From Dehalococcoidia bacterium (GTDB lineage: Bacteria; Chloroflexota; Dehalococcoidia; Lucifugimonadales; CAUZJF01), in contig CBDEFX010000002.1 in assembly GCA_965237635.1 (NCBI GenBank), forward strand, positions 1,983,432 through 2,047,431: a stretch of 64,000 nt of DNA, in the 5' to 3' direction. The notes beneath the pieces are model-generated. The model was not told where the DNA came from and did no database searches. It saw only the letters and a list, made by a program, of their open reading frames with translations. Position numbers and translations under genes: made by a program. Numbering within the stretch: the stretch's first letter is position 1; every line of letters starts with the position of its first letter. Positions 9,359 to 63,624 of this stretch are shown piece by piece.

Positions 9359-9370
9359 TAATGGGGTCCA

Positions 9371-22205: not shown

Positions 22206-22299
22206 ACTATTCCGTCGGCGACATGGCGGACCTAAGTGCTTTCGAGGAAGCGGGGTTTGACATGGCCGTTTCATACCTCACACTGGTGGACGTACTTAG
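22206..22299 (+). pseudogene. Class I SAM-methyltransferase remnant, upstream piece (split by IS1380 copy 1)
   Basis: DYSVGDMADLSAFEEAGFDMAVSYLTLVDVL is the region following the SAM-binding motif in class I methyltransferases. No motif I is found upstream; a REP element lies there instead. Confidence 0.6.
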
Positions 22300-24017: not shown

Positions 24018-24022
24018 GTAAG

Positions 24023-24394
24023 GCTGGAGTCGGCCGTCGGCGAGGCATACCGTGTGTTGCGGCCCGGCGGGCGGTTCATCGTCTGCAACCTCCATCCGAT
24101 GGTCAGTGCGGGAAACGGCTGGATCCGACACGGTACGACAAAGTTGCACTTCAAGCTGGACGACTACTTCGACGAGGGAACTCGAGAGATGAGGTGGAGG
24201 GGTAAGACGTTGACTAACTTTCACCGCAGCCTGTCCAGCTATGTGAGCTCCTTTCTCGAAACCGGGTTCATTTTGGACGGCACATAAGGGAACCGATGCC
24301 TTCCCCGGAGCAGGCTGTGGAGTATCCATACATCGCGGACAACCTTCGAGTGCCCGAATTCATAATCTATCTGCTGCGCAAGCCGTTTAAATAG
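24023..24394 (+). pseudogene. Class I SAM-methyltransferase remnant, downstream piece (with an additional frameshift near 24283)
   Basis: LESAVGEAYRVLRPGGRFIVCNLHP...SSFLETGFILDGT*, then in the +1 frame REPMPSPEQAVEYPYIADNLRVPEFIIYLLRKPFK*. Joining 22299 to 24023 restores the frame (gac gta ctt agg ctg gag). Confidence 0.65.
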
Positions 24395-39749: not shown

Positions 39750-40532
39750 CTATGCGTCAGCAGGGTCGCTGGCAGCGCGCACGGGAGCGGCTTGCCTACT
39801 CTGTTTGAGGCGGTAGCTCTCCCCGTTCATCTCCAGGATGTGAACGCGGTGAGTGAGACGGTCCAGCAGGGCGCCGGTCAGCCTCTCAGAGCCGAAGACC
39901 TCGGTCCACTCGTCAAAGGGCAGGTTGGTGGTGACCAGAACCGAACCTCTCTCGTATCTCTGACTGAAGACCTCGAAGAGGAGCTCCGCGCCGGTCTTGG
40001 AGAGTGGGACGAAGCCAAGCTCGTCGATGATGAGCAGCTTGAGGCGGGCCAGCTTCTTCTGAAGGTTGAGTAGTCGTCGCTCGTCCCTGGCCTCGATCAG
40101 CTCGTGGACCAGCGAGGCGGCGGTGGTGAAGCCGACCGACAGCCCCCTCTGGCAGGCGGCGAGCCCCAGGCCGAGGGCGACATGGGTCTTGCCGGTGCCG
40201 CTGTTGCCGATAGCGATGACGTTCTCCCGCCGGTCTACGTACTCGCAGCGTGCAAGCTGCATGACCAGGTGCTTGTTCACCGACGGCATGGCCAGGAAGT
40301 CGAAGGTGTCGAGGCTCTTGGTGGCAGGGAAGCGTGCAGCCTTGATCCTGCGGTCCACCATGCGGTGATGGCGGTCTATCATCTCAAGCTCAGAGAGCCT
40401 CAGCAGGTAGCCTGGATGGTCGACGCCCTCGGCAGCGCACTGGCCGGCCACCTTGCCGTACTCTCTCAGGAAGGTAGGCAGCTTCAGCTCCTTGAGGTGG
40501 TGCTCCAACAGCACCGTCGATCGCTCGCTCAC
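39750..40532 (-). CDS. istB: IS21-family helper ATPase IstB
   Basis: Walker A NVIAIGNSGTGKTHVALGLG and Walker B LLIIDELGF. The GTG start overlaps the istA stop (GTGA). The track start at 40652 is an extension. Confidence 0.9.
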   Translation of the reverse strand: MSERSTVLLEHHLKELKLPTFLREYGKVAGQCAAEGVDHPGYLLRLSELEMIDRHHRMVDRRIKAARFPATKSLDTFDFLAMPSVNKHLVMQLARCEYVDRRENVIAIGNSGTGKTHVALGLGLAACQRGLSVGFTTAASLVHELIEARDERRLLNLQKKLARLKLLIIDELGFVPLSKTGAELLFEVFSQRYERGSVLVTTNLPFDEWTEVFGSERLTGALLDRLTHRVHILEMNGESYRLKQSRQAAPVRAASDPADA

Positions 40533-41554
40533 CGCCTGCTCCCAGACATGAGCGCCATGTAGTCGCTGGCCGACGTCTTCGTCACGGTAACCCTGGGCAG
40601 GTAGGGGTACAGCTCCAGGTCGAGTCTCTGGGGACGACCCTCTATCCTGCACAGCACCAGGTGTTTGATGGCGTCGAAGCTTATGGCCCCGAGCCTGAGG
40701 GCATCGCGCACACCCTCGTACACCTCCTGCGTCCGGAAGTTCTCCATCAGCCGCAGCACCTGTACGAACTCCCGCTTGCCGCGCCTGCCCATCCTCGACT
40801 CCAGCAGACGCCTCAGCACTCCGAACTCATCCGGCAACTCCCACCCGGCCAAAGGAGCAGCCTGGTCCAGCGCTCCCGTCTTGCGCTCCAGCAGCGGCAG
40901 GTAGTGGATGGGGTCGAACACGAAGTCGTCGCGTTCGTATGAGCGAGGATGCCGGGCTATCACCTCTGCCCCGTTGCTGATCACCACCTCGCCCACATAG
41001 CCGCGCACCACCACCTCCCTGTGACCGTAGGCCACGGGCACCGAGTAGTCGTTGGTCCGGTACCGCACCAGGGACAGGGAGCTGACACGGCTCACGTGCT
41101 TGTCGCTGGCATCGTAGGGCACGGCGGGGAGCGCCAGCAGGGTCTCCAGGTCACGCTCCATCCGCTGGCCTATCGTCTCGTTGTGTCCACGCAGCTGTCT
41201 CCCCAGCCGTTCCAGGCACCGCTCCTCCAGGTAGGCGTTGAGGGCATCGAAGCTCGGGAACGACGGCACAGGCACCAGGAAGTTCCGGCGAGCATATCCC
41301 ACCAGCCCCTCGACCTTGCCCTTGTCGTTACCCTTGCCGGGCCGGCCGAACCGATCCTCGAACAGGTAGTGCGACACCAGCTCCGAGAAGACGCGGGTAC
41401 GCTTCCTTCGACCGTCTCCCAGGATCCTGGCCACCGCCAGTCTCATGTTGTCGTACAGGATGCTCCGGGGCACGCCGCCCAGGAATGAGAACGCCGAGAC
41501 GTGACCGTCGCAGAACGCCTCGGTCGTCTCTGCGGGGTAGACTTTGACGAAGCA
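40529..41554 (-). pseudogene. istA: IS21-family transposase IstA, C-terminal part
   Basis: CFVKVYPAETTEAFCDGHVSAFSFLGGVPRSILYDNMRLAV...GKGNDKGKVEGLVGYARRNF continues the N-terminal part at 43539-44016. Confidence 0.85.
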
Positions 41555-43538
41555 TGATTCCCTCGCAAAAAGGCCTGTTTGAGATGAACCCTGACGTGCG
41601 AAGGGGCCTGGAAGGGAGGAGGCCACGGGATGCCGGCTGCTGGCCTCACCGCACCATCTGCCGCGCTCAGGACAAGCGTGATCCCGTTGCGGTACCCCTT
41701 CCGTGGCTCAGGGCACCCGGTGGAAGCTGTGGAGCGGCGCCCTCATGCGGCCGCGACCGCAGGTACCGTCCCGACCGCCCGCTGAGCCGTGTTCTCCATC
41801 TCCACCAGGCGTGCATGGACCATCCGCTTGAAGTTACACGCCAACGCCTTCAGGTAGACGGCAAGCCGCACCCGACGGCCCCCTCGCACCCGCAAGCGCC
41901 CAAGCCCGTGGGCGCGCTTCAGCTCGGAGTTCGTTCCCTCGATACCAGCCCTTATGGCATACCGCTTGCGCCACTCCTCGGTGGCCTCGGCCCTCCGGCG
42001 CCGCTCGATGTTCACCTTCACCAGGTCCGCCTTGAGAACGTAGTCCCCCGCACGCCGGTCCAGCTTCACTGGGCAACGGGACCGCAAGGGGCAGGGCTCG
42101 CATGTTGTCCCGGCAAAGTGGACCTCTACCCGCTCCGGCGCATCCTCCAACTCGTACTCCTCGATGGACGGGTAGCCGGCGGGGCACACCGTGGCCTGCT
42201 CCCCTATGACGTCGATCTGGAAGTCCGCGGCGGTGAGCGGCGGTGGTCCGTCACGCTCTCCTTCGTGCGAGTTCCCCGGCGCCGACCCCGCCACCGGGCT
42301 CACCAGTTCCGTTCCCCGGCGCGAGGCTTCGAAGGCATTGCGGCCCGACCCATACGCCGTGTCGACGAAGAGCTCGTCCGGTCGGACCTTCCGCTCCGCG
42401 AGCTCGTCAACGACCGGCACGCTCACGTCGGTGTCGCTCCCACTCGAGGGGGTCACCTCCACGTGGGTGATGAGCTGGGTGACGTTCTCCTCGTGGCAGG
42501 TCTCCGCCACCTGCACCTCGTACCCCTTCCCCTTGTGGCCGCTGTAGGTCACATCCGGGTCGTGGGGCGATTGCAGCGAGTCGGCGGACACCTGCTTCGG
42601 GTCCTTCAAGGCCACGGGCACCTTGCATTCCCCAGCATCGTCGTCATCGTCCCCCGGGCGCCCGTCCCGGTGTTTGCCCACATGGCACTGCTCCCGCAGC
42701 AGCCGCTCCAGCAGCCGGTACTCCTCCAGCTGGGCAGCAGTCGTGCCACGGAACCGGTCCACCAGCCGGTAGAGGTCCCAGGCACAGACCGAAAAGCGTC
42801 GCCGACCCTCCCCCGTGTGGGCGTCCTCGTAGTGGGTCGCCTCGTCTTCTTCCTTCAAATAGCGCCCCAGGAGGCCCTCCGGAACCACAGGGCGAAGCTC
42901 TGGGTGCTCCCAGCGCAAGGCCCGCAGGAACAACCGCATCGTCTCACAGAACAGGCCCAGCCGGGTGAGTGTGGCGATGTTGCTCATGATGTGGGTGGAG
43001 TCCAGCCGTTGCTTTCCGGTGCGTATGCCCAGCGCCTGGATGATCCGGTCCGTGGTCTCCTGGAAAGCCAGCCGGCCACCATCGTGCTGCATCAGGCGAA
43101 CTCGGAAGTTGTGGAGGGTCTTCTGGGGCAGGTGGGTCTCCTCGATGTCCAGCCGCAGGGCGTGGTGCCAGAGCAGGTTGAACTCTAGCTGCTCCAGGGC
43201 TTCACCGTCGGTGAGGTTGAACATCTCTTTGAGAAGGTGGACCCCGAGGACGGTCTGCACCGCTCGGTTGGGACGGCCGTTGTCCGCGCAGTACATCGGA
43301 GCAAAGAGCTCCTCGTCAATCAGGGGGAGCGCCTCGTTTCGGAAAACCTCGGCCCAACTCCCCTCCAGGCGCTTAGCCTTCTTCGGCGTCACCAGGAACT
43401 GGGACTGCCAGAGGCTCTCTTGCGGGTCTCGCGCTCGGAACATGCTCCCCTCCCTCGCCCGGGCGCTGCCCCAACGCCCCTTCCCCACATTATCCTCCCA
43501 TTGCCCCCGGAGGACGAGGGGTTTTTACGAGGGAATCA
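41555..43538 (-). mobile_element. IS1182/IS5-like insertion sequence nested in istA
   Basis: Terminal inverted repeats TGATTCCCTCG(C/T)AAAAA (41555-; reverse complement ending at 43538). Flanking tetramers are AGCA (41551-54) and AGCT (43539-42). Removing the element and one tetramer restores istA as ...HSDASFVKVYP. Confidence 0.8.
41743..43488 (-). CDS. DDE transposase (DUF772-type N-terminus; IS1182/IS5 superfamily)
   Basis: FAPMYCADNGRPNRAVQTVLGVHLLKEMFNLTDGEALEQLEFNLLWHHALRLD is a DUF772-like N-terminal domain, and the C-terminal RYAIRAGIEGTNSELKRAHGLGRLRVRG is typical of this superfamily. The probable start is MFRARDPQ at 43443. Confidence 0.75.
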   Translation of the reverse strand: MGKGRWGSARAREGSMFRARDPQESLWQSQFLVTPKKAKRLEGSWAEVFRNEALPLIDEELFAPMYCADNGRPNRAVQTVLGVHLLKEMFNLTDGEALEQLEFNLLWHHALRLDIEETHLPQKTLHNFRVRLMQHDGGRLAFQETTDRIIQALGIRTGKQRLDSTHIMSNIATLTRLGLFCETMRLFLRALRWEHPELRPVVPEGLLGRYLKEEDEATHYEDAHTGEGRRRFSVCAWDLYRLVDRFRGTTAAQLEEYRLLERLLREQCHVGKHRDGRPGDDDDDAGECKVPVALKDPKQVSADSLQSPHDPDVTYSGHKGKGYEVQVAETCHEENVTQLITHVEVTPSSGSDTDVSVPVVDELAERKVRPDELFVDTAYGSGRNAFEASRRGTELVSPVAGSAPGNSHEGERDGPPPLTAADFQIDVIGEQATVCPAGYPSIEEYELEDAPERVEVHFAGTTCEPCPLRSRCPVKLDRRAGDYVLKADLVKVNIERRRRAEATEEWRKRYAIRAGIEGTNSELKRAHGLGRLRVRGGRRVRLAVYLKALACNFKRMVHARLVEMENTAQRAVGTVPAVAAA

Positions 43539-44016
43539 AGCTTGCGTCGCTGTGGGGAAGGTCCAGCACGAAGTAGTGGATGGTCTGCTCCACTCCGCCG
43601 ATCACCGCCTTGGCCTGGCCGAAGTCGCACTGGGCGTGACCGGGAGGGTGAGACAGCGGAACGTACATCTCACGCGTCCGCCGCCGCCGCTCGCGCACGT
43701 AGTCTTTGACTATCGTGTACTTGCCACTGAACCTGTGCTCAGCTCTCAGACGCTCGTAGATCCGCTTCGCGGTGTGGCGCTGCTTCTTCGGAAGACTGCG
43801 GTCATCCTCCAGTATCCGGTCGATCACCCCGCGGTACGGGTCCAGCTTGGGGCGGCGGGGCGGTGACTCCCGACGGTAACCGGGAGGCACCGAGTACTCC
43901 AGCATCTTGCGCACCGTATCCCGGTGCAGACCGAACACTCGGGCAGCCTCCCGCGTGCTCATCCCCTCCACCATGCAGACCCGGCGCACTCGCACGTACA
44001 GATCCACCTTGTACAT
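43539..44016 (-). pseudogene. istA: IS21-family transposase IstA, N-terminal part (HTH)
   Basis: MYKVDLYVRVRRVCMVEGMSTREAARVFGLHRDTVRKML...HAQCDFGQAKAVIGGVEQTIHYFVLDLPHSDA, then the junction. Confidence 0.85.
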
Positions 44017-44160: not shown

Positions 44161-44592
44161 ATGAAGGCATACACAACCCACAAAGAGGAATCCGAGGTGT
44201 TCTTGTCCTACAAGCGCGCCGACCAAGCCACTGCATTGATCTTGGCCAAGGGCCTTGATCAAAAGGGAAGACGGGTATTCATAGATGTCCACGACGACAC
44301 GCTGGCGCCGGGCCAGGAGGACTTGGACGACGCACTGTTGACTGCTATATCCAAGTCAGACACGATGGTAGTGATCGTCTCGGACGAAACCCAATGGTCA
44401 TGGTGGGTGCCTTGGGAGATTGGTGTCTCGACGCCCTTCCGCAAACCGAAGGCCATGTACAAGCCACAGACCGACAAACCATTGCCGACCTATCTTAAGA
44501 AGTTGCGGAGGTTGCGGAATTCATCGGAGGCCAATTTGTTGGTGTTCGCCCACAGTAAGCTCCGGTTGCCCGGTTCGGGGCACAGTCGGTGA
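44161..44592 (+). CDS. TIR-domain protein (short, stand-alone)
   Basis: 143 aa from ATG 44161. EVFLSYKRAD (beta-A FxSY), DTMVVIVSDETQWSWWVPWEIG (W..E with a candidate catalytic Glu). The track N-terminal extension to 43924 lies in IS21 DNA. Confidence 0.75.
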   Translation: MKAYTTHKEESEVFLSYKRADQATALILAKGLDQKGRRVFIDVHDDTLAPGQEDLDDALLTAISKSDTMVVIVSDETQWSWWVPWEIGVSTPFRKPKAMYKPQTDKPLPTYLKKLRRLRNSSEANLLVFAHSKLRLPGSGHSR

Positions 44593-44654: not shown

Positions 44655-45185
44655 ATGACAATGCCAAAGCTGGTCAACGTAAAGCTAGATCTGAAGTTGC
44701 CGGGAATCGGAGGGGTTGCCGGAACGTGGGAACCGGACGAATCCGAAGTGAGGGCAGCCTGGGAGCTGTATGTGGAAATGGCGACTCGGACTCCACTCGG
44801 TAGCTTCTCAACCCAAGAGGGGTCTCTGCGAGAAGCCCTGAACTCCATCTACTCGTTGTTCGACACCACAAGAGGCATCTTGAGGAAGTATGGACCAGGC
44901 GTGGCGCGGCCAAAGAGCGGCCATGAGATGTCCTTTGGGTACCTGGCTGTCTCGATGCTTAATCTGGTACTCCGTCCGCTTCTCACGGAGTGGCACCCCA
45001 AGCTTCGGAGCTGGGAACGAGACAATTCACACCTAGACGAAATCGAATGGGAGGAACGCAACGATTTCCTCAACGCGCTCAATGAAATCAGCGGTCAGCT
45101 TCGTCAGTACGCTGGTCTGTTCGCCGAAGTCGCAGATGTACCCGAACTGACAGAGAGTGGAGATGCGACGACAACAACGACATAA
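44655..45185 (+). CDS. Hypothetical helical protein between two TIR-type genes
   Basis: 176 aa with no TM segment. AAWELYVEMATRTPLG...LREALNSIYSLFDTTRGILRKYG... I recognise no family. Its 3' end overlaps the next ORF. Confidence 0.55.
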   Translation: MTMPKLVNVKLDLKLPGIGGVAGTWEPDESEVRAAWELYVEMATRTPLGSFSTQEGSLREALNSIYSLFDTTRGILRKYGPGVARPKSGHEMSFGYLAVSMLNLVLRPLLTEWHPKLRSWERDNSHLDEIEWEERNDFLNALNEISGQLRQYAGLFAEVADVPELTESGDATTTTT

Positions 45186-45717
45186 GGTATTCGTTAGCTA
45201 CCATCACGAGAACGACCAAGGGAGTCGTAACCGGTTCGAGAGACTGTTCGCCGAGGTATACGACATAACGGATTCGCGATCAGTAAAGATAGGCGCCATC
45301 CCCAACGGATTGACCCTCGATGAAATCAGCCGCCGTATCCGCGACGACTACCTAAGTGACTCTACAGTGACCGTGGTTCTCATAGGGAAAGATACATGGC
45401 GGAGGAAGCACGTCGACTGGGGAATCGCCGCAACGCTTCGCGGCACCGACGCCAATCCGAGATCAGGTCTGCTTGGCATTCTCCTGCCTACACACGCTTC
45501 CTACAATAGAGAAGACTACGATCCGTACACGATTCCACCACGACTCCACTACAACGTAGAATGTGGCTTTGCCGATTTGTATTCTTGGAGCGAATCGCCC
45601 GACGATGTGGCCGGCTGGGTACACAGGGCCTACAGGCGCAGAAGCACAGTCATTCCGGATAACTCCTCCGTCAGGTTCGCAAAGAACAGGAAGGGTCCAC
45701 GGTGGTACCTTCATTAA
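45163..45717 (+). CDS. DUF1863 / ThsB-type TIR-like domain protein
   Basis: HKVFVSYHHENDQ and TVTVVLIGKDTWRRKHVDWGIAATL fit the MTH538/ThsB-like pattern. The usual W-x-E glutamate position reads W-G-I. The start is ATG 45163 or GTG 45157. Confidence 0.65.
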   Translation: MRRQQRHKVFVSYHHENDQGSRNRFERLFAEVYDITDSRSVKIGAIPNGLTLDEISRRIRDDYLSDSTVTVVLIGKDTWRRKHVDWGIAATLRGTDANPRSGLLGILLPTHASYNREDYDPYTIPPRLHYNVECGFADLYSWSESPDDVAGWVHRAYRRRSTVIPDNSSVRFAKNRKGPRWYLH

Positions 45718-45785: not shown

Positions 45786-46454
45786 TTATCCCCAGTCCAG
45801 GGGAGCACCAGAATAACCGCCCTCCTGAAGACTTCTGAGCCACTCGACGAACTGAACGATAGTTCCTCCTGAGAAGCTATTGCGGTGTCCAATTCCCGCA
45901 TGAACGATGTTCGTCCCACCGAATGTAGGGATCTTCTGTCCCTGACCGCCGAAATAGACGAAGTCGTCACTGACGAGAACGCGGTTCACGGACGTATCGC
46001 GGCGGACGTTGTGAATATTGAGCGCGCCATCATGCAAGCTGTGGTGCGAGTCGGCCTGAAGCCATGAGCCACTGATCTCGTCCCACTGGTATATGTTGTC
46101 TCCAAAGGCTCGCATCTTGCTCGCGTGTAGGTTGGGACGCTTGTTGTTGAAACGAGGGTCATTCCAATAGTCATTAAACGACACGGCCTCACTGACCCGC
46201 ATGGCATAGACAAGGTGTCCGTCTCGCTGCCTAGTTTTTGAACCCGTGCCAACCACCCAGTCTCCAATCGTGGCTGCTTGCCTGATTTTTGGCTTACAGG
46301 TAGCTAGTGTGCACAAGCCGTAGAAGGGATTCGGAGCGAATCCAAAATCCCTGGCTACTACGTATGAGTGCAGTCTCGTCACTGGGGAGTCTATCCACAG
46401 GAGTGTCTCGGGATAGGCCGACGATCCCGGCTGGATCCATCCTGGTTGAACCAA
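45786..46454 (-). CDS. Nmad2-like (nucleotide-modification-associated domain 2) protein
   Basis: LHSYVVARDFGFAPNPFYGLCTLATCKPKIRQAATIGDWVVGTGS matches my memory of the Nmad2 N-terminal signature. The ATG at 46454 overlaps the upstream TIR gene by 64 nt. An alternative GTG at 46382 lies 9 nt after that gene's stop. Confidence 0.55.
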   Translation of the reverse strand: MVQPGWIQPGSSAYPETLLWIDSPVTRLHSYVVARDFGFAPNPFYGLCTLATCKPKIRQAATIGDWVVGTGSKTRQRDGHLVYAMRVSEAVSFNDYWNDPRFNNKRPNLHASKMRAFGDNIYQWDEISGSWLQADSHHSLHDGALNIHNVRRDTSVNRVLVSDDFVYFGGQGQKIPTFGGTNIVHAGIGHRNSFSGGTIVQFVEWLRSLQEGGYSGAPLDWG

Positions 46455-46867
46455 CCATCAGAGTCGCCGTTTATGGTATCAATGATGCTCTCACCATGCC
46501 AACCAACAATTGCGTCACCATATCGGTCAAGTGCCTCTGGCAGTTCACAGTCCTTGGAACCCCATTCCCATACGCCTACAATCCTCTTCCCAAGTTTGTG
46601 GGCCTGCTCGATTTCCCAGTCCACCCAATCGCTATCCTTAGTGTCTGGGGACACATACACGACGAGCACACCGGCCCACCTGATATGAGGTGCCAGTATC
46701 TGGCTCTTGATGTAGTCCGGGTTGCTGGCTGCGTTCGGTTTGTCCGAAGTAATGGATGAGTCACGCAATGTCATGCCATGCTTCTGGGTTAAGTCCTTAA
46801 TGCGAGTAAGGCCCTCATCATCCTCATGTATGTGACTGATAAAGACATTCCGCGTATCGTCCTCCAT
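46391..46867 (-). CDS. TIR-domain protein embedded in the nucleotide-modification operon
   Basis: RNVFISHIHEDDEGLTRIKDL, VLVVYVSPDTKDSDWVDWEIEQAHKLGKRIVGV (W..E Glu present). The ATG lies 3 nt after the ThyA-like stop and AAGGAG lies upstream. Confidence 0.7.
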   Translation of the reverse strand: MEDDTRNVFISHIHEDDEGLTRIKDLTQKHGMTLRDSSITSDKPNAASNPDYIKSQILAPHIRWAGVLVVYVSPDTKDSDWVDWEIEQAHKLGKRIVGVWEWGSKDCELPEALDRYGDAIVGWHGESIIDTINGDSDGWFNQDGSSRDRRPIPRHSCG

Positions 46868-46870
46868 CGT

Positions 46871-47948
46871 CTACCACTCCTTTCCCAGACGTTGTCGACG
46901 TCTACTAGCTTGACTAGGGCTGTCACTGGATCTACTCGTCTGCCTCTGTCTGCTCGAGCACCATCTGGACCAAAGCTGTTGATAAACGGGATTGGTGCAG
47001 CGAGACATGATGCGGGCTGCGGAGTCCGTCAGCCCACGGCGGCGTAGAGCTTCTGCCGTGAGGACCGCCGCCATGTTCCTGTAAGCCTGGGGTGCGCTGT
47101 CCCAGGAGGCCAACCCTTCGAGCGTATCCGGATCGGCCTTCGGGTCGATCATTTGCTCAACGCGGCTCTCCAGCTCCTTGAATACCCGATCTGACACCTG
47201 CCTAGTCAGGGTCAGGCAGTCGTCATTCGGCGAAACACTCGGCAGACCCCTTGAAGCCATCACGTTCTCCCAGCGACGGTCGTACACGTGCAGGCTGTCG
47301 CTTATCTGGGTGTACGAACCGCACTCGACTCCCAGCCACCCTGCCAGTATCTCCTGCATGGCTGTGAATTGAACAAAGTTGTGAGGAACTCCCAGGAACA
47401 TGTCATTGCTGCGGATGACCTGAAGCCACTCCAGCTTTCCGTCACGAAGCTTCGGCATCGCAACTACGTTGCACGGGGTGTCACAATCAGCTGGAGTCCC
47501 GTCATATGCAGGCAGGTCTAGTCGGGAATCCCAAATCTGCAGAACCACCTGCCTCGTGTTCGGATCGTGTTCAAGTACCTGGTAGGCCCGCTCAAGCTGG
47601 TCGATGCCAAGGTGGTGACGCAGGCGATTAGCCATAGGCTCCATGAAGCTCCGGGCCGGGCCCAACGAAGTCGTGATACCGGCTGTTCCAATATTCCAAG
47701 AATGCCAGGTCACGTCGTCCGGTCATAATCCAGACGACCTCCGCCAACGCAAAGGCCAAGTTCAACGGTGGCTCCCTGGAAACGACCCACCGCTGGCGCG
47801 GGTCTGCGATTGAGATTGCGACATGAAGAATTTCTCTGGTCGGACCTCCTCTGCTGCTTTGGCTGCCCACCCCTTCCGACCGTCGAAATGCGTCAGCCGC
47901 CTGCTGCCACACGTCATCGGCCGATTGCCCCTGAAAGGCCGAAATCAC
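46871..47948 (-). pseudogene. Thymidylate synthase (ThyA)-family pyrimidine methylase/hydroxymethylase homologue with a 1-nt frameshift near 47630
   Basis: N-terminal ORF (47948-47628): TREILHVAISIADPRQRW...LNLAFALAEVVWIMTGRRDL..LEYW......GPGPELHGAYG*. The second frame reads NRLRHHLGIDQLERAYQVLEHDPNTRQVVLQIWD....DTPCNVVAM.KLRDGKLEWLQVIRSNDMFLGVPHNFVQFTAMQEILAGWLG...G.Y.QISDSLHVY. Deleting one T in ggc-t-aat gives GAYGNRLR, the family consensus. Confidence 0.75.
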
Positions 47949-49642
47949 TCTGACCCTCCTTGAAGAGGAAGCAGATGGTTAATGCCCCACTTGGGAGGGT
48001 ACCAATACCCTATGGGTTTCGGTGAGGGACGATACAGCTGCTTGATACGAGTGCGCTTGCTGAGCCCCTTGATCTCTGGATGTTTCACACGCGCGTACTT
48101 TGACACCTCGCAGAAGAGGTTTTGGCAGTCAATAAGCTGTAGCCGCCGCCCTCCCAGCGTACGGAACTTCAGTCCCAGCCTCTCGAACTCACGCTCTTGG
48201 CTCTCCGTAACCAATTTGATGATATCGGCATCGTTCAGGCCGCTCTGATCTGTGAAACACTTGCGAATGCCATCCAGGGCTCCTGGCCCGGGCACAACGA
48301 ACTCCATCTCGGAGAAATCGGTAAATTCGCTGTAGTTGAGGTCCGTAGCGAACTGATAAGCAAGGAAGTTACCTATGGTCGGGTATGACCGGAGCACATC
48401 GAAGGCCTCGGCCATGGTCGACGCCTCAGTGATCCTTTGCGGCACCTCATCCTCCATCATCCGTTCCAGTAGCATCAGGTGATTGCGATGCTTCTGAGAT
48501 TGGCCGAACGAACTCCTGCCTGACGGCATCATGTAGGCCGCCGAGTAGATTCTTGTGCCGGCCGCAAGAGCCTCCGTCAGCACACGGTCGTACTTCTGGA
48601 AGGAGTAGTCGGCATGACTGATCGTCGTCAGCTGACCGCGCAACATCTCCCACGTATCGATTTTGTTGAAAAGCTTGAAGAGGATGGTGCGGAAGAACAC
48701 TTCCTCCGGCGACGGGTCCCCATCGTATATAACGTGCCTGATGAGGTACTGGCTCACGCGATCCGATGCCCGATAGGCATTGGTGAACTTATGCTTGGCG
48801 AGGATAGGGTCGGTCGTCCACGGAGCGGGAAGTCCTTCGAGCTTGCGGAAGAACACCTCCTGACGCTCGACAGCAAAGCGCCAGTAGCTCTCATACACGA
48901 CCGTGGTTCCAGCCGACGCTAGCGTTGTGAAGGCCGATGTAGCCTTTGTGGGAGGAGGGAGAAGGGGCAACTGGTCACTAGGTCCCCGCAGCGGGCTGGC
49001 CAAGTCGGCAGGAGCGTCATGTCGCACGTCAGGAATTAGGCCTTGGAGACAGGCGAGTAGCTGACTGAGAGAGTCTTCCACCGCTGAATCATTCTGTATT
49101 CGGTGGATAGGGTACTGGCCCTTCTCGTTGTCTGAAAGTATCTGGTAGCCCTCTCGCAGCGGTGTGCAGTCCTCACCATCAAATGCCTCCCCGGACCGGT
49201 CGACCAAGAAGAGGGCATCGGGCTTGATGCCACGCCAATGTAGACGCTCTGCCTGAATCAAGGCGTCCAAAGTGGGGCTCTCGACCGACGCTGCCCGACC
49301 GTAGACCCAGGTCGACCACCAAAAGCGGTCGAGGATCACCCAACGACCTTCACGGAGCGCCGGTAGGATACGCTGTTCTATCTCATCCAGATGTGCGGCG
49401 ATGTGTAGGGCTTGCAGGCTCGTGCCTGTTATCGCCTTTAGCCCATACGAAGCCGGGGCGTGATGCACGTCATAGACCAGTCGGCCAACGGTCCCCTCAT
49501 CCTTACCTGGAAACGATAGGTGGTCGCATATGAGGCCCATTGCCTTGAGCTTGTCGGCGAGGGCTCGTGAAAGCGTGGACTTTCCGACGCCGTCAGGTCC
49601 CTCAAAGACGATTAGCCTTCTTGAATTCATCACCTCAGGCAT
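47945..49642 (-). CDS. Fusion of a dNMP (thymidylate)-kinase-like P-loop domain and an aGPT-pyrophosphorylase-like (DNA base hypermodification) domain
   Basis: N-terminus LIVFEGPDGVGKSTLSRALADKL...VILDRFWWSTWVYG is Tmk-like. C-terminal ~350 aa: FTNAYRASDRVSQYLIRHVIY, FRTILFKLFNKIDTWE, YPTIGNFLAYQFATDLNY, QNLFCEVSKY. I recognise these as the alpha-glutamyl/putrescinyl-thymine pyrophosphorylase family, with moderate certainty. The stop overlaps the ThyA-like GTG (GTGA). The start is chosen at ATG 49642, after GGGAGAG. Confidence 0.6.
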   Translation of the reverse strand: MPEVMNSRRLIVFEGPDGVGKSTLSRALADKLKAMGLICDHLSFPGKDEGTVGRLVYDVHHAPASYGLKAITGTSLQALHIAAHLDEIEQRILPALREGRWVILDRFWWSTWVYGRAASVESPTLDALIQAERLHWRGIKPDALFLVDRSGEAFDGEDCTPLREGYQILSDNEKGQYPIHRIQNDSAVEDSLSQLLACLQGLIPDVRHDAPADLASPLRGPSDQLPLLPPPTKATSAFTTLASAGTTVVYESYWRFAVERQEVFFRKLEGLPAPWTTDPILAKHKFTNAYRASDRVSQYLIRHVIYDGDPSPEEVFFRTILFKLFNKIDTWEMLRGQLTTISHADYSFQKYDRVLTEALAAGTRIYSAAYMMPSGRSSFGQSQKHRNHLMLLERMMEDEVPQRITEASTMAEAFDVLRSYPTIGNFLAYQFATDLNYSEFTDFSEMEFVVPGPGALDGIRKCFTDQSGLNDADIIKLVTESQEREFERLGLKFRTLGGRRLQLIDCQNLFCEVSKYARVKHPEIKGLSKRTRIKQLYRPSPKPIGYWYPPKWGINHLLPLQGGSE

Positions 49643-49840
49643 GCACGCTCTCCCTTGAATCAGTTCCTGCCTGATCCTCAAAGTCCAATAGGTCCGACTC
49701 CACCCGGCGGGCCGGTCTAGCCGAGTCCCTCTTGGCTTTGCGCTGAGTTCCTACCTGCAGGGCGACTCCGGTGAGGTTTGCGATACAGAAGGAGGAGTTG
49801 CCTAACTCGACAGCACACCACCCGACTCGCCCCGGCACAG

Positions 49841-51214
49841 CTACCTCGAGGCTCCAAGATATCGCTGCACATCTGCTTCATCCCCTCTGCCTCTTATCCC
49901 TGAGCAGTGGTAGCAGTCAGGGTCGGGGTTTTTGGTTGGAATGGTGACGACGCCTCTCTCACCATAGTATTTCAGGACGTTCTTTGGTTGCCGCGGTACG
50001 CCGGTAGTCGCCAGCATGAACTCCGTCACTCCGAGAGAGGCGATTACGCCATTGATGGACACCACTGAAGGACCAGCTTCCCCCAAGTCATCAATGGGAA
50101 CCCCGTAAATGGCCGCGTGGTCCTTTCTCTGTTCGTCGCTCATCAAATCGATTCGGGCCGCTTGAAGGTCGAGTTCGTCGTAACAGACCAGGCAACCGGT
50201 GTCGTCGCCTACTACACACACCCTACCTCCATACTTTGTACCCCCCTCGACGATATCTGACGCCAGGTCAAAGTAGGGCTTGGCATAGGCCAGACATAGT
50301 TCATTTAGAATCAGACGTGACCCATCGTTGTCCATACACCCGAACACATAGTCAGCCTCCATGATGGCATCAAAGGCAGGTTGACCTCGCAGGCATTCAG
50401 CAATGGTGACGACCTCTACCTCCGGATTGATTTCACCAGCAAGCCGTCTCCCGAGATCAACCTTTGGCATGCCAGGAACGAGATCGTCATGCCTTAGACC
50501 AACGTAACGATTGCGATTTGTCTCGTCGACCTCTTCGGAGTCGATCAAAACCAGCCTCCCCATGCCGAGGAGGGCAAGCTGCTGAACGACGTGAGTCCCC
50601 AGGCCACCAACTCCAACAACCGCAACGCTGGCGGCCCTTAGAGAATCCTGCCCACTCTGACCGAAGAAGCGAACGTTGCGATCGTACCTCTCGCTATCCA
50701 CGACAAGGGATGACAGCCTGGTGGGCTGGAACGCTCTGTCTCCCACGACGATGCCGTCCAGGTGCTGAGGTTTCTCGGGATCCATCATCCACGCAAGGGC
50801 ATCGAAGTCGGTGTGCGTGACCACCACGGCGAAATAGGGTCTCTTCCTGAGACGCCACCGAACATGAGGAACGAACTCCCGTAGCCCGCGCCGGTCCAAT
50901 GGGGAGAATCTTACTGGCTGGGGACCTAAGTGGGAGTGGAATTCGACTATCGAAGCGCCAAGGTCGTGAGCTCGCTTGATGACACTGGCCCGGAATTCGT
51001 CATTAAGCTCTAGGTGGTACCAACTATTCTCAACTAAGCCGTCTGGAGGGACGGGATACCATTCGACATGCTCGTAGACTTGGGTATCGTCGGTGTGAAA
51101 CCCTGGCACGACAAACATGAACCCCGCAGACTCTGACTCCTCGTTGTTCTCAAGGAGATGTGCCAAGACCTCCTCGTAGACGCTCCTAGGGACATGGAGA
51201 AGAACTCGGCCCAT
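49841..51214 (-). CDS. JAB/MPN (JAMM) peptidase fused to a ThiF/E1-like adenylyltransferase
   Basis: N-terminus ESAGFMF ... EFHSHLGPQPVRFSPLDRR is a JAMM-like E...HxH...S..D. C-terminus VAVVGVGGLGTHVVQQLALLGMGRLVLIDSEEVDETNRNRY, FGCMDNDGSR, plus CLVC and CYHC pairs. The ATG lies 1 nt after the E2 stop (TAGCATG). Confidence 0.8.
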   Translation of the reverse strand: MGRVLLHVPRSVYEEVLAHLLENNEESESAGFMFVVPGFHTDDTQVYEHVEWYPVPPDGLVENSWYHLELNDEFRASVIKRAHDLGASIVEFHSHLGPQPVRFSPLDRRGLREFVPHVRWRLRKRPYFAVVVTHTDFDALAWMMDPEKPQHLDGIVVGDRAFQPTRLSSLVVDSERYDRNVRFFGQSGQDSLRAASVAVVGVGGLGTHVVQQLALLGMGRLVLIDSEEVDETNRNRYVGLRHDDLVPGMPKVDLGRRLAGEINPEVEVVTIAECLRGQPAFDAIMEADYVFGCMDNDGSRLILNELCLAYAKPYFDLASDIVEGGTKYGGRVCVVGDDTGCLVCYDELDLQAARIDLMSDEQRKDHAAIYGVPIDDLGEAGPSVVSINGVIASLGVTEFMLATTGVPRQPKNVLKYYGERGVVTIPTKNPDPDCYHCSGIRGRGDEADVQRYLGASR

Positions 51215-51215
51215 G

Positions 51216-51605
51216 CTAAGCCCCCTCCTGGAACCTGTCGGCGAAGCCTCTTGCCCACTGAAGAAGATTGGATCCCCTTGGGGTGTCCGCCGTTGGTTTC
51301 CATACTATCGGGGTCCACGAAAAGAAGCCCCACGTTTCTCCGAATGGAGGTTGATTGGAGGCCGGGTCCGTGTAGTTGTTTGGAGTAGCTCCTTCGAACT
51401 GTATCCCCGACGGAACGAAGAATCCGTACAGTGGTGCCGCGGGATACCCATCACTGACTTGGAACGCCACATCAGTTGCCGCTCTGTTCCATCCTTCGGG
51501 AAGTGGATACGACGGCAGGCATACCCAGCGCCCGTCCTCTTGGTACACGACGTCTGGGAATACCTGCCGGATGAGCGTCAGCTCGGCCTCAATACGCTCC
51601 GTCAC
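51216..51605 (-). CDS. Prokaryotic E2/UBC-like protein (Prok-E2_E-like)
   Basis: 130 aa from GTG 51605. TERIEAELTLIRQVFPDVVYQEDGRWVCLPSYPLPEGWNRAATDVAFQVSDGYPAAPLYGFFVP matches the pattern of E2/UBC proteins that accompany multiubiquitin + E1 + JAB genes. The long track extension to 51938 overlaps the Ubl gene in another frame. Confidence 0.6.
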   Translation of the reverse strand: MTERIEAELTLIRQVFPDVVYQEDGRWVCLPSYPLPEGWNRAATDVAFQVSDGYPAAPLYGFFVPSGIQFEGATPNNYTDPASNQPPFGETWGFFSWTPIVWKPTADTPRGSNLLQWARGFADRFQEGA

Positions 51606-51610
51606 GACGC

Positions 51611-51853
51611 CTAGCCCCGCTGGAATCTGATCTTCTTCGAGAAGCCTATTCCCGGCCTCAGCTTTACTACCTCGCCTGGCTCCAAGTTTCGTTCGGTGCC
51701 GTCCTCCAGATCTATCAGTACCACGCCTGCTGAGACATCCCAGCCGCCGAGTGCGGCTACCTCTTCCGTGGTAATAGTGTCCTTCTCCCAGGGCTTGAAC
51801 GCACCCTCGATGTCTACTTCGTACTTGGCGTCGCGTACGGTCTGCTCGCTCAT
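51611..51853 (-). CDS. Ubiquitin-like (single multiubiquitin/beta-grasp-type domain) protein ending in Gly
   Basis: 80 aa, YEVDIEGAFKPWEKDTITTEEVAALGGWD...VVLIDLEDGTERNLEPGEVVKLRPGIGFSKKIRFQRG*. A strong RBS (AAGGAGA) lies 9 nt upstream. The C-terminal residue before the stop is Gly. Confidence 0.6.
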   Translation of the reverse strand: MSEQTVRDAKYEVDIEGAFKPWEKDTITTEEVAALGGWDVSAGVVLIDLEDGTERNLEPGEVVKLRPGIGFSKKIRFQRG

Positions 51854-51963
51854 GATTAGCTATCTCCTTCTGCCCTAGATCGGGGCCATGACTTGGGATC
51901 CTTGTGGTAAGGATACGAAGGGGCGCTCGCGATGTCAAGCGGTACTGCTCTAGAGCTTAAACG

Positions 51964-51992
51964 TTGACAAATGGACACTCGGCCATTACTCT
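51964..51992 (+). promoter_or_regulatory. Candidate sigma-70-type promoter of the XRE/ImmA operon (TTGACA-17-TACTCT), with an upstream palindrome
   Basis: TTGACA at 51964-51969, a 17-nt spacer, then TACTCT at 51987-51992, ~35 nt before ATG 52027. A perfect 10-bp palindrome GCTCTAGAGC lies at 51947-51956 and an ATCCTT-N5-AAGGAT repeat at 51898-51914 in the divergent intergenic region. Confidence 0.4.
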
Positions 51993-52026
51993 CACCTACA
52001 GATAGCTCAGAAGAGGTGACGCAAGA

Positions 52027-52422
52027 ATGAACCTTGGCACGTACCTAAGGCAGGTAAGGGAAGAGCGTCAACTCTCTCTCAGAGACGTAGAGCGCCTTGC
52101 CAAAGAGAGGGAACTCAGCGCAGACGTGAGTAGTGGATATCTCAGCATGTTGGAGCGAGATGCAGTTAAGCAGCCGGCACCTAGGGTCCTGCACACCCTT
52201 GCTGAGATCTATGAAGTCGACTACATCGATCTGATGCGTAAGGCAACTTACATTCCCGACGATGCCGATGTGAAGGGCGCCTCAGCAACTAAGGCCGCAT
52301 TCCGGGGTGTTTCTCAACTTTCAGAGGAACAACGCCAGCGCGTTCAGCGCATGATCGATTTTGAGCTGAGTGAGGGACGTGCCGCCAGGCACCGGCGCGG
52401 TTCAAGGGATGCTAATGGGTAG
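52027..52422 (+). CDS. XRE-family HTH transcriptional regulator
   Basis: LGTYLRQVREERQLSLRDVERLAKE....VSSGYLSMLERD. RBS AGAGGTGA. Divergent from the Ubl operon. Confidence 0.8.
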   Translation: MNLGTYLRQVREERQLSLRDVERLAKERELSADVSSGYLSMLERDAVKQPAPRVLHTLAEIYEVDYIDLMRKATYIPDDADVKGASATKAAFRGVSQLSEEQRQRVQRMIDFELSEGRAARHRRGSRDANG

Positions 52423-53293
52423 CACAGAAGAATCTAGTCGCCTATCAATCAGAAGCGAAGCCGAGCGTTTCCTTGCGATGCACGGATTTTCCGCGCCTCC
52501 GCTACCTTCAGATCAAGCTCTGGCTGCACGAAAGCTGGCCGTGTCTCAATTCTCCCTCGACGATTTGCTGCTGAAGGCCAATCTGCCACCCGAGGACAAC
52601 AAGAAGATTCAGGCCATGCTTGACGCCGACGCAAGAACCGTCGCATTCAAGAGAGACCTCCCTGAGAAAAAGAAGGATTGGGGTTCACTTCACGAGGTCG
52701 CTCACGAGTTCATCCCGTGGCAGAGAGATCTCCTGTACTACTGTCCTCTCCTTTGGCTTCCGGTGCACTTACAAGCCCAATTGGAAGCTGAGGCCGACCT
52801 TTTCGCCGCAGAGGCCTTCTTCTTTGGCAGCCAGTTTCACAAGCAAGCCTATTCCGGTGACCTCAGCCTCAGCACCGCCATTGAACTAGCGGCTGATGTT
52901 TACGGAACCTCTTTCCATGCAACGTTTGCGCATTACGTGGAAGAGAGCCCTTTGCCCCGCTGTCTACTAGTCTGGAAACCAAAGGGTGGGAACGGGTCAC
53001 TAGGATTAGCTGTAGGGCTTGAGTTGCATTACTACATTAAGTCCAAAAGCTTTCTCTGGCATATCGAACCTGGACAGATAGCGGACCCAGATGATGCTGT
53101 GAGTAAAGTGTTCATGGAGTCAGATCTCGGGGTCGTTAAGCACGAAATGGTGTTTCAGAGCGAGTCTGGTGAAGAGAACGTGACGGACGCTGAATCCTTC
53201 TCAAATTCATACAACACGTTTACGCTGATATCGCAGCCCGTGCGCAGACGTACGCAATTGGCCCTCGCGAAAGCCGCCAAAGCTGGACGCTAG
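52409..53293 (+). CDS. ImmA/IrrE-family (DUF955) zinc metallopeptidase
   Basis: HExxH motif in GSLHEVAHEFIPWQ. Its start overlaps the XRE stop. Length ~294 aa. Confidence 0.7.
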   Translation: MLMGSTEESSRLSIRSEAERFLAMHGFSAPPLPSDQALAARKLAVSQFSLDDLLLKANLPPEDNKKIQAMLDADARTVAFKRDLPEKKKDWGSLHEVAHEFIPWQRDLLYYCPLLWLPVHLQAQLEAEADLFAAEAFFFGSQFHKQAYSGDLSLSTAIELAADVYGTSFHATFAHYVEESPLPRCLLVWKPKGGNGSLGLAVGLELHYYIKSKSFLWHIEPGQIADPDDAVSKVFMESDLGVVKHEMVFQSESGEENVTDAESFSNSYNTFTLISQPVRRRTQLALAKAAKAGR

Positions 53294-57151: not shown

Positions 57152-57274
57152 CGGTCAACTCGCGCTCTAGAGGCAGTGTGAGCAGCTGCGGTCGGACGGA
57201 ATGATGTGGACGTCAGCTCGCTCTCGGAGTCGTTCATTTGCCTCAACGCCCTATCTGAGCGTCGGTCTCCTTAC

Positions 57275-58993: not shown

Positions 58994-59226
58994 CTTACGC
59001 GAGGCCGGCGACCATGCGCCGAAGACGTGACCGAGCCGCTGAAGTGACCTTCCTTGAGTCCGCTCCGGGCATTTGCCTGTCGCCAGGCATGGTGCGTCGT
59101 AGCGGATCACTGCTTTGCCGCCCCTGCCGCAGCAGACCTACAACCGGGTCAGACCCCTCGGTTGGCCTAGAGGCCCCCGGCGCGGAGAGTCCCATTGCTG
59201 CTGACCCTGTTCCCACGCTCATCGGC

Positions 59227-63100: not shown

Positions 63101-63624
63101 AGTTGCTCGCCCTTGCTGGCATACCGCCGCTGTCCGGGACTGGGATCCGATTTCTTCCCGTGTCCCACAAGGGCCAATCGAACGAGTCGCCTGAGGAGGC
63201 GGCCAGGGTCGCCGAGCTGGTGCGAAGCCTGCTGGAATCAGCCCCTACCTACACAGGCGAAGCGGGAGAGGCACACCCGCTAGCCGAGGATGATGTGCTC
63301 CTCATTACGCCATATGACGCTCAGGTCAGGGCGCTGGGCGAAGCTCTACCTAGCTTTCGTATTGGTACGGTGGATAAGTTCCAGGGGCAGGAGGCCCCGG
63401 TCTCGATCTACTCGATGGCGACGAGTTCTCTGGATGAGGCTCCGCACGGGATGGAGTTCCTGTACAGCCTCAACCGGCTGAACGTCGCAACGAGCAGGGC
63501 GCGATGCCTTGCCTTGGTGGTTGCCAGCCCTGAGCTGCTGAGAGTGCGCTGCCGGACTCCCCGCCAAATGCGACTTGCAAATGCGATAGCGCGGCTTGTG
63601 GAGATGACTGAGCGGGGAGCATAG
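60121..63624 (+). pseudogene. RecB-like nuclease (TM0106-type) + RNase-H-like + SF1 (DNA2/NAM7-like) helicase gene, broken by 2 frameshifts and 1 in-frame TGA
   Basis: Four consecutive ORFs. (1) SATDLVGFLECGHLASL...VIYQAVLFDGRRLGYAGFLRRVEQ. (2) LGSWSYEVWDTKLARHAKASAVLQLCMYTDML...HIYHYAPYE. (3) After TGA 61637-39, in frame: DELLGQIEAYNRDDCLSTLHLRDWL...IQGPPGSGKST. (4) VDVLFIDEAGQMSLAD...LLGDPQQL...TVDKFQGQEAPVSIYS...LNVATSRAR. The frameshifts are near 60500 and 62665. Confidence 0.75.

Follow-up and report, generated by a model that had tools for sequence, protein, structure and literature searches.

The domains of the locus described here are already known, as a set, to form a validated defense system. 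DS-4 (working identifier NTTI) was discovered in Escherichia coli with DefensePredictor (DeWeirdt, Mahoney and Laub, Science 2026; PMC13092281) and was validated as an antiphage system, with replication. Its five proteins are a thymidylate synthase (ThyA)-family enzyme (TS; WP_087900468.1), a deoxynucleoside monophosphate (dNMP) kinase (WP_087900469.1), an HMUDK_hel protein (WP_087900470.1), a TIR protein (WP_072044445.1), and Nmad2 (WP_047174762.1) (PMC13092281, Tables S6 and S8). In our literature search DefensePredictor alone tied these domains to defense; that report cites Burroughs et al. (2015) as predicting several of them in defense (PMC13092281). Here, we describe a related locus in a 64,000-nucleotide stretch of a Dehalococcoidia bacterium (contig CBDEFX010000002.1), hereafter called the window. 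Four coupled minus-strand genes at positions 45786 to 49642, recognized from the list of open reading frames (ORFs) and with Pfam, encode a kinase fused to an alpha-glutamyl/putrescinyl-thymine pyrophosphorylase of clade 1 (kinase::aGPT-Pplase1), a ThyA-like enzyme, a TIR protein, and Nmad2.

All four domain assignments had been made in an earlier reading of the DNA letters alone (the sequence-only reading), and Pfam hidden Markov models upheld each of them. On the homology of its proteins, we assign the locus with high confidence to the DS-4 or “TIR-Nmad2” antiphage family, as a member that carries a hydroxymethylase cassette and an accessory module of TIR proteins and a helical protein, UNK176. 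For this identity, the mechanism proposed below, and an impaired state of the window copy, taken jointly, we estimate a probability of about 0.55.

Four window proteins are detectably homologous to those of DS-4 by BLASTP: Nmad2 (50% identity, 2e-54), TIR (38%, 1.5e-32), HMUDK_hel (29%, 5e-32), and TS, the two parts of which match DS-4A with 26 to 28% identity (9e-8 and 3e-4). Both loci contain the five domains in a co-directional operon ending in TIR and Nmad2, both have dUMP-type TS residues and the Cys-Glu pair of HMUDK_hel, and neither has a clade 2 transferase. They differ in gene order (TS-kinase-HMUDK_hel in DS-4 versus kinase::HMUDK_hel-TS in the window) and in the kinase, which is a separate T4-gp1-type DNMK in DS-4 and a fused domain of the thymidylate kinase (TMPK) type in the window. 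The host of DS-4 belongs to the Enterobacteriaceae, while the closest relatives of the window locus are in metagenome-assembled genomes (MAGs) of Dehalococcoidia. Relative to DS-4, the window adds the genes TIRc, UNK176, and TIRb; in this copy, TS is frameshifted and TIRb carries the substitution E89G.

Thoeris shares with the window ThsB-family TIR proteins with a catalytic Glu, several TIR paralogues per locus, and a defense-island setting. Unlike Thoeris, the window has a fixed partner, Nmad2, attached pyrimidine-nucleotide enzymes, and no ThsA of any described type; no match to ThsA, SIR2, SLOG, or Macro was obtained among 20 window proteins (Pfam and PADLOC) or among the annotated recurrent neighbor families.

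The thymidine hypermodification pathway of phages consists of a dUMP hydroxymethylase, a 5-hydroxymethyldeoxyuridine DNA kinase (5-HMUDK), an aGPT-Pplase2 amino-acid:DNA transferase, and tailoring enzymes (Lee 2018, PMC5889632; Lee 2021, PMC8989533). A homologous TS and aGPT-Pplase clade 1, as well as the “kinase - Pplase1 - Nmad - TS” logic, are common to these clusters and the window. The kinship that the earlier reading had seen is borne out by the M6-like Pseudomonas phage PAC6 (L086, PP408253.1 29243-42148), where the order is aGPT-Pplase2, pyridoxal phosphate (PLP) enzyme, radical S-adenosylmethionine (rSAM) enzyme, kinase, aGPT-Pplase1, Nmad5, and TS, and the TS of which matches the repaired window TS with an E value of 9e-27. 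The block from kinase to TS parallels the bacterial cassette, which suggests a shared origin. Unlike the phage clusters, the window locus is chromosomal, with a TMPK-type kinase and without clade 2 transferase or PLP, rSAM, or flavin-dependent (FAD) tailoring enzymes; compared with PAC6, it has Nmad2 instead of Nmad5, plus a TIR. No Pfam match to aGPT-Pplase clade 2 or 3 (E < 0.01) and no BLASTP match to PAC6 Pplase2 was obtained for the window, and no clade 2 transferase was found among the partners in related loci.

Two further kinds of system invite comparison. In MilA/MilB and BcmA-type pathways, a CMP hydroxymethylase acts with an N-glycosidase, and MilA and the window TS both have a long C-terminal extension that is foreign to ThyA. 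MilA carries Lys133, Ala176, and Asp186, as befits CMP, while the window TS has Arg, Ser, and Asn, as befits dUMP; moreover, the window has no MilB glycosidase with the nucleoside deoxyribosyltransferase (NDT) fold, and its context is defense rather than antibiotic biosynthesis. No NDT-family match was found, and the neighbor of TS is a ThsB-family TIR. Nucleotide-pool defenses include dCTP deaminase, dGTPase, and viperin-type chain terminators. They resemble the window in using nucleotide-metabolizing enzymes as antiviral effectors, and sister loci carry DCD-family and MazG proteins; unlike them, the window joins a biosynthetic cassette, a putative hydroxymethylase plus a kinase, with a glycosylase-like domain and the TIR-Nmad2 core.

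The TIR-Nmad2 core and its exchangeable partners

To collect Nmad2 loci, one genome for each species was scanned with a pattern; this gave more than 572 loci, and the 79 closest to the window (L002 to L080) were taken. Their ORFs were searched with the proteins of the window, DS-4, and L001, and flanking ORFs were also clustered de novo; counts out of 79 describe the relatives closest to the window, not an unbiased sample of the family. The family is large, with 6,519 clusters at 90% identity in a word-indexed search and 2,774 representatives at 50% (E ≤ 1e-3). The closest loci (82% identity) are in Dehalococcoidia MAGs, and further hosts are found across many phyla (including Poribacteria, Latescibacterota, Binatia, Acidobacteriota, Proteobacteria, Streptomyces, Bacteroidota, and Planctomycetia). 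In IMG/VR, only 5 Nmad2 loci were present in 2.9 million contigs. One member, DS-4, is defensive by experiment, and the comparative regularities of this family turn an unexplained five-gene finding into testable hypotheses.

Nmad2 is immediately preceded, on its own strand, by a TIR gene of the same subfamily in all 79 loci, as well as in DS-4 and in four of the five divergent IMG/VR loci. The two domains also occur in one polypeptide: Nmad2 fusions comprise ThsB_TIR::Nmad2 (P0325), TIR_2::Nmad2 (P0294), Nmad2::TIR::TIR (P0277), Nmad2::MazG::MazG_C (P0289), and Nmad2::NOV_C (P0257), some of which could be gene-calling artifacts. Because of this adjacency and these fused proteins, we take TIR followed by Nmad2 to be the invariant core rather than an insertion amid pyrimidine enzymes. 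The sequence-only reading had called the set unusual for the TIR in its middle, but that TIR is half of the core in 79 of 79 loci, and the five-domain set is already DS-4.

The core TIR gene of the window (46391 to 46867, minus strand) encodes 158 amino acids with the catalytic Glu85 and matches Pfam ThsB_TIR (5.5e-23) and, over its full length, the PADLOC ThsB model PDLC00418 (5e-68). Each of the residues F9, S11, H12, W84, and E85 recurs in at least 95% of 82 sequences. The stop codon (46391 to 46393) is followed by a gap of 8 nucleotides (nt), previously given as 9, and then by the GTG at 46382 that opens Nmad2 (45786 to 46382, minus strand, 198 amino acids). We prefer this GTG to an overlapping TTG at 46454 because Nmad2 homologues start with M(T/P)RLHSY.

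Nmad2 was identified with Pfam PF18753 (9e-71), and its invariant residues are Cys24, Cys29, Asp95-Asn96, Ser112-His113-His114, Asn122, and Asp129-Thr130. An AlphaFold2 (AF2) model (predicted local distance difference test [pLDDT] score of 75) gave Foldseek matches that were weak but consistently to ASCH, YTH, EVE, and McrB-N PUA-like domains, and the protein probably has a PUA-like, ASCH-type fold. Such PUA-like domains read or hydrolyze modified bases. No match was obtained in a sequence search of the PDB with Nmad2. We also considered an HNH/His-Me nuclease, on account of a DSHH...N..N...DT motif after a beta-hairpin, and dropped it as no supporting match was found.

Everything beyond this pair is modular, and the gene content of the 79 loci presents the pyrimidine enzymes as swappable cassettes. 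The most frequent partner is MazG::MazG_C (54 loci), followed by UNK176 (43), TIRb (37), HMUDK_hel (33), a protein of the uracil-DNA glycosylase (UDG) superfamily (29), DCD with its dCTP-deaminase/dUTPase fold (17), kinase (14), and TS (11, or 14%). TS is accompanied by both kinase and HMUDK_hel in 11 of 11 loci. The UDG gene (~219 codons) directly follows MazG::MazG_C, the two occurring together in 28 of 29 loci. No locus has both UDG and HMUDK_hel: 29 carry UDG without HMUDK_hel, 33 carry HMUDK_hel without UDG, and 17 lack the two, some of these 17 being on truncated contigs (Fisher p = 5.5e-10). Because they are mutually exclusive, UDG and aGPT-Pplase1, both DNA-glycosylase-like, are suggested to fill the same slot. 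No remnants of MazG, DCD, or UDG were found between 43 and 53 kb of the window.

The system also reaches beyond the limits of 45786 and 49642 that the earlier reading had set. Three plus-strand genes converge on the operon: TIRc (44161 to 44592), UNK176 (44655 to 45185), and TIRb (45157 to 45717). We attribute them to the system on gene-order grounds because UNK176-TIRb forms part of the operon itself in L004, L005, L008, and L011, where a single strand carries kinase::HMUDK_hel - TS - UNK176 - TIRb - TIR - Nmad2. In the window, L001 to L003, and L022, UNK176-TIRb has the opposite orientation and runs toward the Nmad2 end.

TIRb, an accessory TIR of 186 amino acids, matches ThsB_TIR (2.4e-16, Pfam) but has Gly (E89G; GGA at 45421 to 45423) at the position of the catalytic Glu, which is present in 40 of 40 relatives. 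TIRc, a third TIR of 143 amino acids upstream of UNK176, is of the TIR_2 type (8e-12, Pfam) and matches PADLOC ThsB models down to 1e-13; relatives of it lie beside the core in 6 of the 79 loci. UNK176 is conserved near the core, in most cases as the gene immediately before TIRb or TIR, and matches no family in Pfam (also at relaxed thresholds), PADLOC, or NCBIfam and nothing in a PDB sequence search. Its AF2 model (pLDDT 78) is a helical bundle, and an alignment of relatives shows an invariant motif, N103...R107-P108-x4-W113-H114. HEPN toxins came first in Foldseek without reaching significance (E at least 0.3), and a HEPN assignment is a lead only, drawn from the invariant R-x6-H motif, which is reminiscent of the HEPN Rx4-6H. 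In two loci, a UNK176-like domain is N-terminal to a Patatin phospholipase (L037:12612-15338 and L068:4595-7147).

The pyrimidine-nucleotide cassette

The first gene of the operon (47945 to 49642, minus strand) is intact and encodes 565 amino acids from an ATG. A dTMP-kinase-like P-loop domain (residues ~5 to 150; Thymidylate_kin, 8e-16, Pfam) is followed by a whole-length match (residues ~248 to 526; 2.4e-112) to PF18723 HMUDK_hel, formerly known as aGPT-Pplase clade 1. The P-loop fusion stands as first described. The kinase domain has the motifs FEGPDGVGKST and ILDRF and matches thymidylate kinases in the PDB at 1e-6; the 5-HMUDK families PF18748 and PF18747 were not found in this domain, for which Pfam gave only Thymidylate_kin and AAA_28/33, and no BLASTP match to the PAC6 5-HMUDK was obtained. 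We therefore classify the domain, by its motifs and matches, as a dTMP-kinase type and not as a member of the phage 5-HMUDK P-loop family. No BLASTP similarity was detected between the window kinase and DS-4B, which is a T4-gp1-type dNMP kinase (Pfam DNMK, 4e-7). Since non-orthologous kinases, TMPK-type in the window and DNMK in DS-4, occupy one slot, the needed activity is argued to be pyrimidine dNMP phosphorylation.

With the HMUDK_hel domain of the window, tblastn retrieved 494 phage records, including Vi01-like (ViI-like) Salmonella phages and M6/PaMx11-like Pseudomonas phages. Both of these groups are known thymidine hypermodifiers. The matching PAC6 protein is annotated as “aGPT-Pplase1 domain-containing protein.” All 35 homologues compared share an invariant Cys511-Glu512 pair (“FCEVSKY,” with “ACEIDK” in DS-4C and “LCEFDKY” in phages), and a visual alignment sets Cys511 against the essential Cys (“VLCKWK”) of the clade 2 aGPT-Pplase transferases (PMC8989533). 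The aGPT-Pplases have a predicted glycosylase-like helix-hairpin-helix (HhH) fold (PMC8989533). Given the invariance of the pair and its placement at the essential-Cys site of clade 2, aGPT-Pplase1 probably functions as an enzyme, attacking pyrimidines at C6, rather than as a passive helical domain.

Upstream of this gene, a C-terminal remnant of about 23 codons (49671 to 49739, minus strand), which matches no Pfam family, was detected by tblastn with residues 227 to 249 of the L001 protein (61% identity; E of 0.003 against the 10-kb region). In L001, this domain, called “KHN” here, is fused to the N terminus of the kinase (L001:5922-8393), and elsewhere it is a separate gene of ~260 codons (e.g., L029:15359-16135 and L045:13621-14409). 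KHN-like ORFs accompany HMUDK_hel in 10 of the 79 loci; in the window and L002, no more than a short remnant is left. A likeness of KHN to ThyA, seen by eye, was rejected because a BLASTP comparison with the TS set gave no match.

Gene 1 overlaps the ThyA-like gene (46871 to 47948, minus strand) by a GTGA at 47945 to 47948 that is preceded by AGGAGG, and between the ThyA-like and TIR genes AAGGAG (46877 to 46882), TAG (46871 to 46873), three nucleotides (ACG), and the ATG at 46867 follow one another. These junctions are as previously described. Promoter and terminator scans of the locus gave matches at chance level only.

The ThyA-family enzyme (Thymidylat_synt, 2e-17, Pfam) has its catalytic Cys in “DTPCN,” as was noted before. 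One extra A at 47628-47629 introduces a TAA stop and a frameshift, which split the gene into ORFs at 47628 to 47948 and 46871 to 47713. In a DNA alignment with L001 and L002, the two closest loci, the site reads GGCTAATCGC in the window versus GGGTA-CCGC in the relatives. Once one A is removed, the sequence again encodes GAYGYRLRHH, exactly as in L001, within a single frame of 358 codons that has no further defect and departs from no family-conserved residue. Because the repaired frame is otherwise fully conserved, the lesion is very recent or an assembly error.

Among solved structures, the repaired TS matches the CMP hydroxymethylase MilA best (4e-25, versus 8e-13 for canonical ThyA), in agreement with the earlier description as hydroxymethylase-like. 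In MilA, Lys133' and Ala176 specify ribose where Arg and Ser specify deoxyribose, and Asp186 specifies cytosine where Asn specifies uracil (PMC5175136). Arg (“TRQ”), Ser (“RSND”), and Asn (“GVPHN”) are found in the window TS, its 11 relatives, and DS-4A, all of which retain the catalytic Cys, Glu, His, and Tyr as well. From these specificity residues, the substrate is predicted to be dUMP. The product is likely hydroxymethylated, judging from the affinities to MilA and PAC6 and from the long non-ThyA C-terminal extension. Together, such a TS and a dNMP kinase would, by analogy, reproduce the pre-replicative half of the phage 5-hydroxymethyldeoxyuridine pathway.

TS has been disrupted independently in 3 of 12 loci, by the extra A in the window (46871-47948), by an extra T in L004 (L004:7280-8384), and by a nonsense mutation of codon 136 in L011 (L011:7282-8385), with intact neighboring system genes beside it each time. 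This recurrent loss may mean that the hydroxymethylase is costly or toxic, or that it is dispensable.

Possible mechanisms

It is tempting to assume that TIR-Nmad2 loci provide a modular immunity based on the poisoning of DNA with pyrimidines, and we advance this family-wide model tentatively, at well under even odds. What it proposes for the window is the mechanism that we favor there, and it builds on the part of the sequence-only reading that had a modified pyrimidine nucleotide made or destroyed as an antiviral, which is compatible with the evidence. In the window, the ThyA-like enzyme would convert dUMP to 5-hydroxymethyl-dUMP, the kinase domain would phosphorylate it to 5-hydroxymethyl-dUDP, and host nucleoside diphosphate kinase would yield 5-hydroxymethyl-dUTP. 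The 5-hydroxymethyluracil (5-hmU) would then enter replicating DNA, mainly that of the phage, where aGPT-Pplase1 would attack the base through its Cys-Glu pair and leave lesions or adducts that block the phage. In sister loci, putative dUTP-favoring enzymes, MazG::MazG_C with or without a DCD protein, may place U instead of 5-hmU in replicating DNA, and a UDG-family enzyme would replace aGPT-Pplase1 in generating lethal lesions. The TIR paralogues may be Thoeris-like infection sensors and generators of an NAD-derived signal, or NADases, that work with Nmad2, a putative PUA/ASCH-like nucleotide-binding enzyme, and TIRs and Nmad2 would together control the system. If true, this would provide a first function for aGPT-Pplase clade 1, and bacteria would be directing the hypermodification enzymes of phages against the phages themselves. 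The comparative picture links Thoeris-type TIR immunity with phage thymidine-hypermodification chemistry and offers a route toward the functions of aGPT-Pplase clade 1, Nmad2, and MazG_C.

Several points weigh against this account. Domain identities, homology to DS-4, core adjacency, mutual exclusivity, and specificity residues are observations, while each biochemical step of the DNA-poisoning route, its direction of control, and its DNA target are inferred. DS-4, the only member for which protection of cells was shown, was validated but not dissected, and its phenotype in one row of Table S7 is weak, with an effect on Lambda only (-log efficiency of plating [EOP] of 0.93, ~8.5-fold) and smaller plaques (PMC13092281). 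The clade 2 aGPT-Pplase is sufficient in vitro (PMC8989533). A hydroxymethyl and a methyl product of TS are indistinguishable from sequence alone, and the best Foldseek E values of Nmad2 are only 0.05 (PDB) and 2.7e-3 (BFVD). As to decay of the window copy, the frameshift in the ThyA-like gene could be a sequencing error. Finally, the core is accompanied by MazG::MazG_C alone in 13 of the 79 loci, by TIRb and UNK176 alone in 7, and by nothing in 2. Because such minimal loci exist, the core must be able to act without a hydroxymethylase, for example by depletion of NAD+, and DNA poisoning cannot be the general effector.

One alternative, doubtful rather than remote, is that the system is Thoeris-like only: the TIRs sense infection and deplete NAD+ or make an ADP-ribose-derived signal, Nmad2 and/or UNK176 is the effector, and the pyrimidine enzymes are auxiliary, for instance against phages with modified nucleotides or against phage anti-defense, with no DNA poisoning. 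The catalytic Glu and full-length ThsB match of the core TIR, the presence of multiple TIR paralogues at a locus, which recalls Thoeris arrays, and the loci reduced to TIR, Nmad2, TIRb, and UNK176 (7 of 79) or to the bare pair (2) all fit this alternative. So do the R-x6-H motif of UNK176, its weak fold matches to HEPN toxins, and its Patatin-fused relatives, and the breakage of TS beside intact neighbors in 3 of 12 loci. The HEPN assignment is, however, not significant (E of 0.3; no Pfam match), and the window contains no ThsA (SIR2-SLOG or Macro-TM). Furthermore, a glycosylase-like gene occurs with nucleotide-pool enzymes in 62 of the 79 loci, in an exclusive pattern that is hard to square with dispensable extras, and Nmad2::MazG::MazG_C fusions link Nmad2 itself to nucleotide metabolism.

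The sequence-only reading had also recognized the logic of MilA/MilB-type 5-hydroxymethylcytosine pathways. Here, the ThyA-like enzyme would hydroxymethylate a pyrimidine nucleotide, and the TIR, as an N-glycosidase, would with Nmad2 release an antiviral base, sugar-phosphate, or signal while DNA stays unmodified. TIR domains act by cleaving N-glycosidic bonds. Among solved structures, TS comes closest to MilA, the TS and TIR genes are consecutive and tightly coupled, and Nmad2 resembles ASCH/PUA-like domains that bind or hydrolyze modified nucleosides. Nonetheless, we consider this improbable. The TS residues are of the dUMP type (Arg/Ser/Asn) and not of the CMP type (Lys/Ala/Asp), the TIR belongs to the ThsB family and not to MilB/NDT, and a dNMP kinase would make no sense if the nucleotide were to be hydrolyzed. 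The partners within the cassettes are DNA-glycosylase-like (UDG and HhH-type aGPT-Pplase1), and their phage relatives act on DNA. As TIR-Nmad2 occurs without TS in 68 of the 79 loci (86%), the TIR is not generally a glycosidase for the TS product.

Self-modification of DNA, as the modification half of a restriction-modification (R-M)-like system whose nuclease would kill unmodified invaders, had been another suggestion of the earlier reading, and we judge it very unlikely. Under this hypothesis, the host would replace or decorate its own thymidines. The enzymes are homologous to those of phage thymidine hypermodification, and Type I R-M genes lie within 10 kb in 20 of the 79 loci; these are ordinary N6-adenine systems, typical of defense islands. 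The family neighborhood contains no conserved nuclease that could be the partner. A clade 2 transferase and a kinase of the 5-HMUDK family are likewise missing from the window, and only 14% of the loci carry the TS cassette. In a genuine R-M pair, inactivation of TS, as found in 3 of 12 loci including the window, would kill the cell or subject it to its own restriction.

The slightest chance is left to phage cargo, a prophage operon serving hypermodification of the phage's own DNA: the closest characterized relatives of TS and aGPT-Pplase1 are in phages and the region is rich in mobile elements, but prophage-only occurrence was looked for and not found (5 loci in 2.9 million IMG/VR contigs versus more than 572 species genomes), the genes scanned beside the operon show no structural, terminase, or integrase-att signature, the flanks are insertion sequence (IS) elements and defense genes with housekeeping genes 8 to 20 kb away, and phage hypermodification clusters lack the TIR-Nmad2 pair, PAC6 having Nmad5 and no TIR.

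The window copy and its surroundings

Because of the TS frameshift, the E89G substitution in TIRb, and the reduction of the upstream KHN domain to a remnant, the window copy is, by its sequence, probably partly inactivated or impaired. The remaining system proteins agree with the family consensus, and the surrounding region is rich in IS elements and holds other broken genes. This damaged locus matters less than the family-level patterns, and intact relatives are available in L002, L008, and L010.

The setting is a chromosomal defense and IS island, with LeuRS, ArgC, and Iso_dh 8 to 20 kb away. The defense-island context proposed by the earlier reading is confirmed by the neighbors, which include a CapH/CapP-like pair, a Ubl-E2-E1/JAB operon, a fragment of a Mokosh-like helicase, and IS elements. 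In the module at 49841 to 53293, a CapH-like helix-turn-helix protein (52027 to 52422) and a CapP-like protein (52370 to 53293) are divergent from the Ubl/E2/E1-JAB operon. The latter comprises a ubiquitin-like (Ubl) ORF ending in Gly (51611 to 51853), Prok-E2_E within 51216 to 51938, and a JAB+ThiF E1 fusion (49841 to 51214). We considered this E1/JAB-E2 module as part of the system and rejected it, since none of the 79 loci has homologues of it close to Nmad2.

Several mobile elements were identified. Two inverted copies of a DDE_Tnp_1_4 IS (22298 to 24023 and 57269 to 58995), which are 99.1% identical over 1,727 bp, bracket ~33 kb that includes LeuRS, ArgC, and the entire defense island. 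An IS21-like element (40529 to 44016) is apparently interrupted: an N-terminal transposase fragment (43525 to 44016) is separated from a C-terminal Mu-transposase fragment (40529 to 41626) by an IS with a DDE_Tnp_1_6 transposase (41743 to 43488). The superfamily 1 (SF1) helicase at 61700 to 63624, which resembles Mokosh MkoA/MkoC (PADLOC, 5.5e-30), is split into ORFs at 61700 to 62698 and 62785 to 63624 and is probably, judging from this split, another broken defense gene. A second mobile and defense patch lies at 4603 to 12400, with a VapE-like, primase-type protein (4603 to 6069), an IS3-type integrase (8423 to 9358), and a fused HSDR_N and N6_Mtase/Eco57I-type (Type IIG-like) R-M protein (10388 to 12400).

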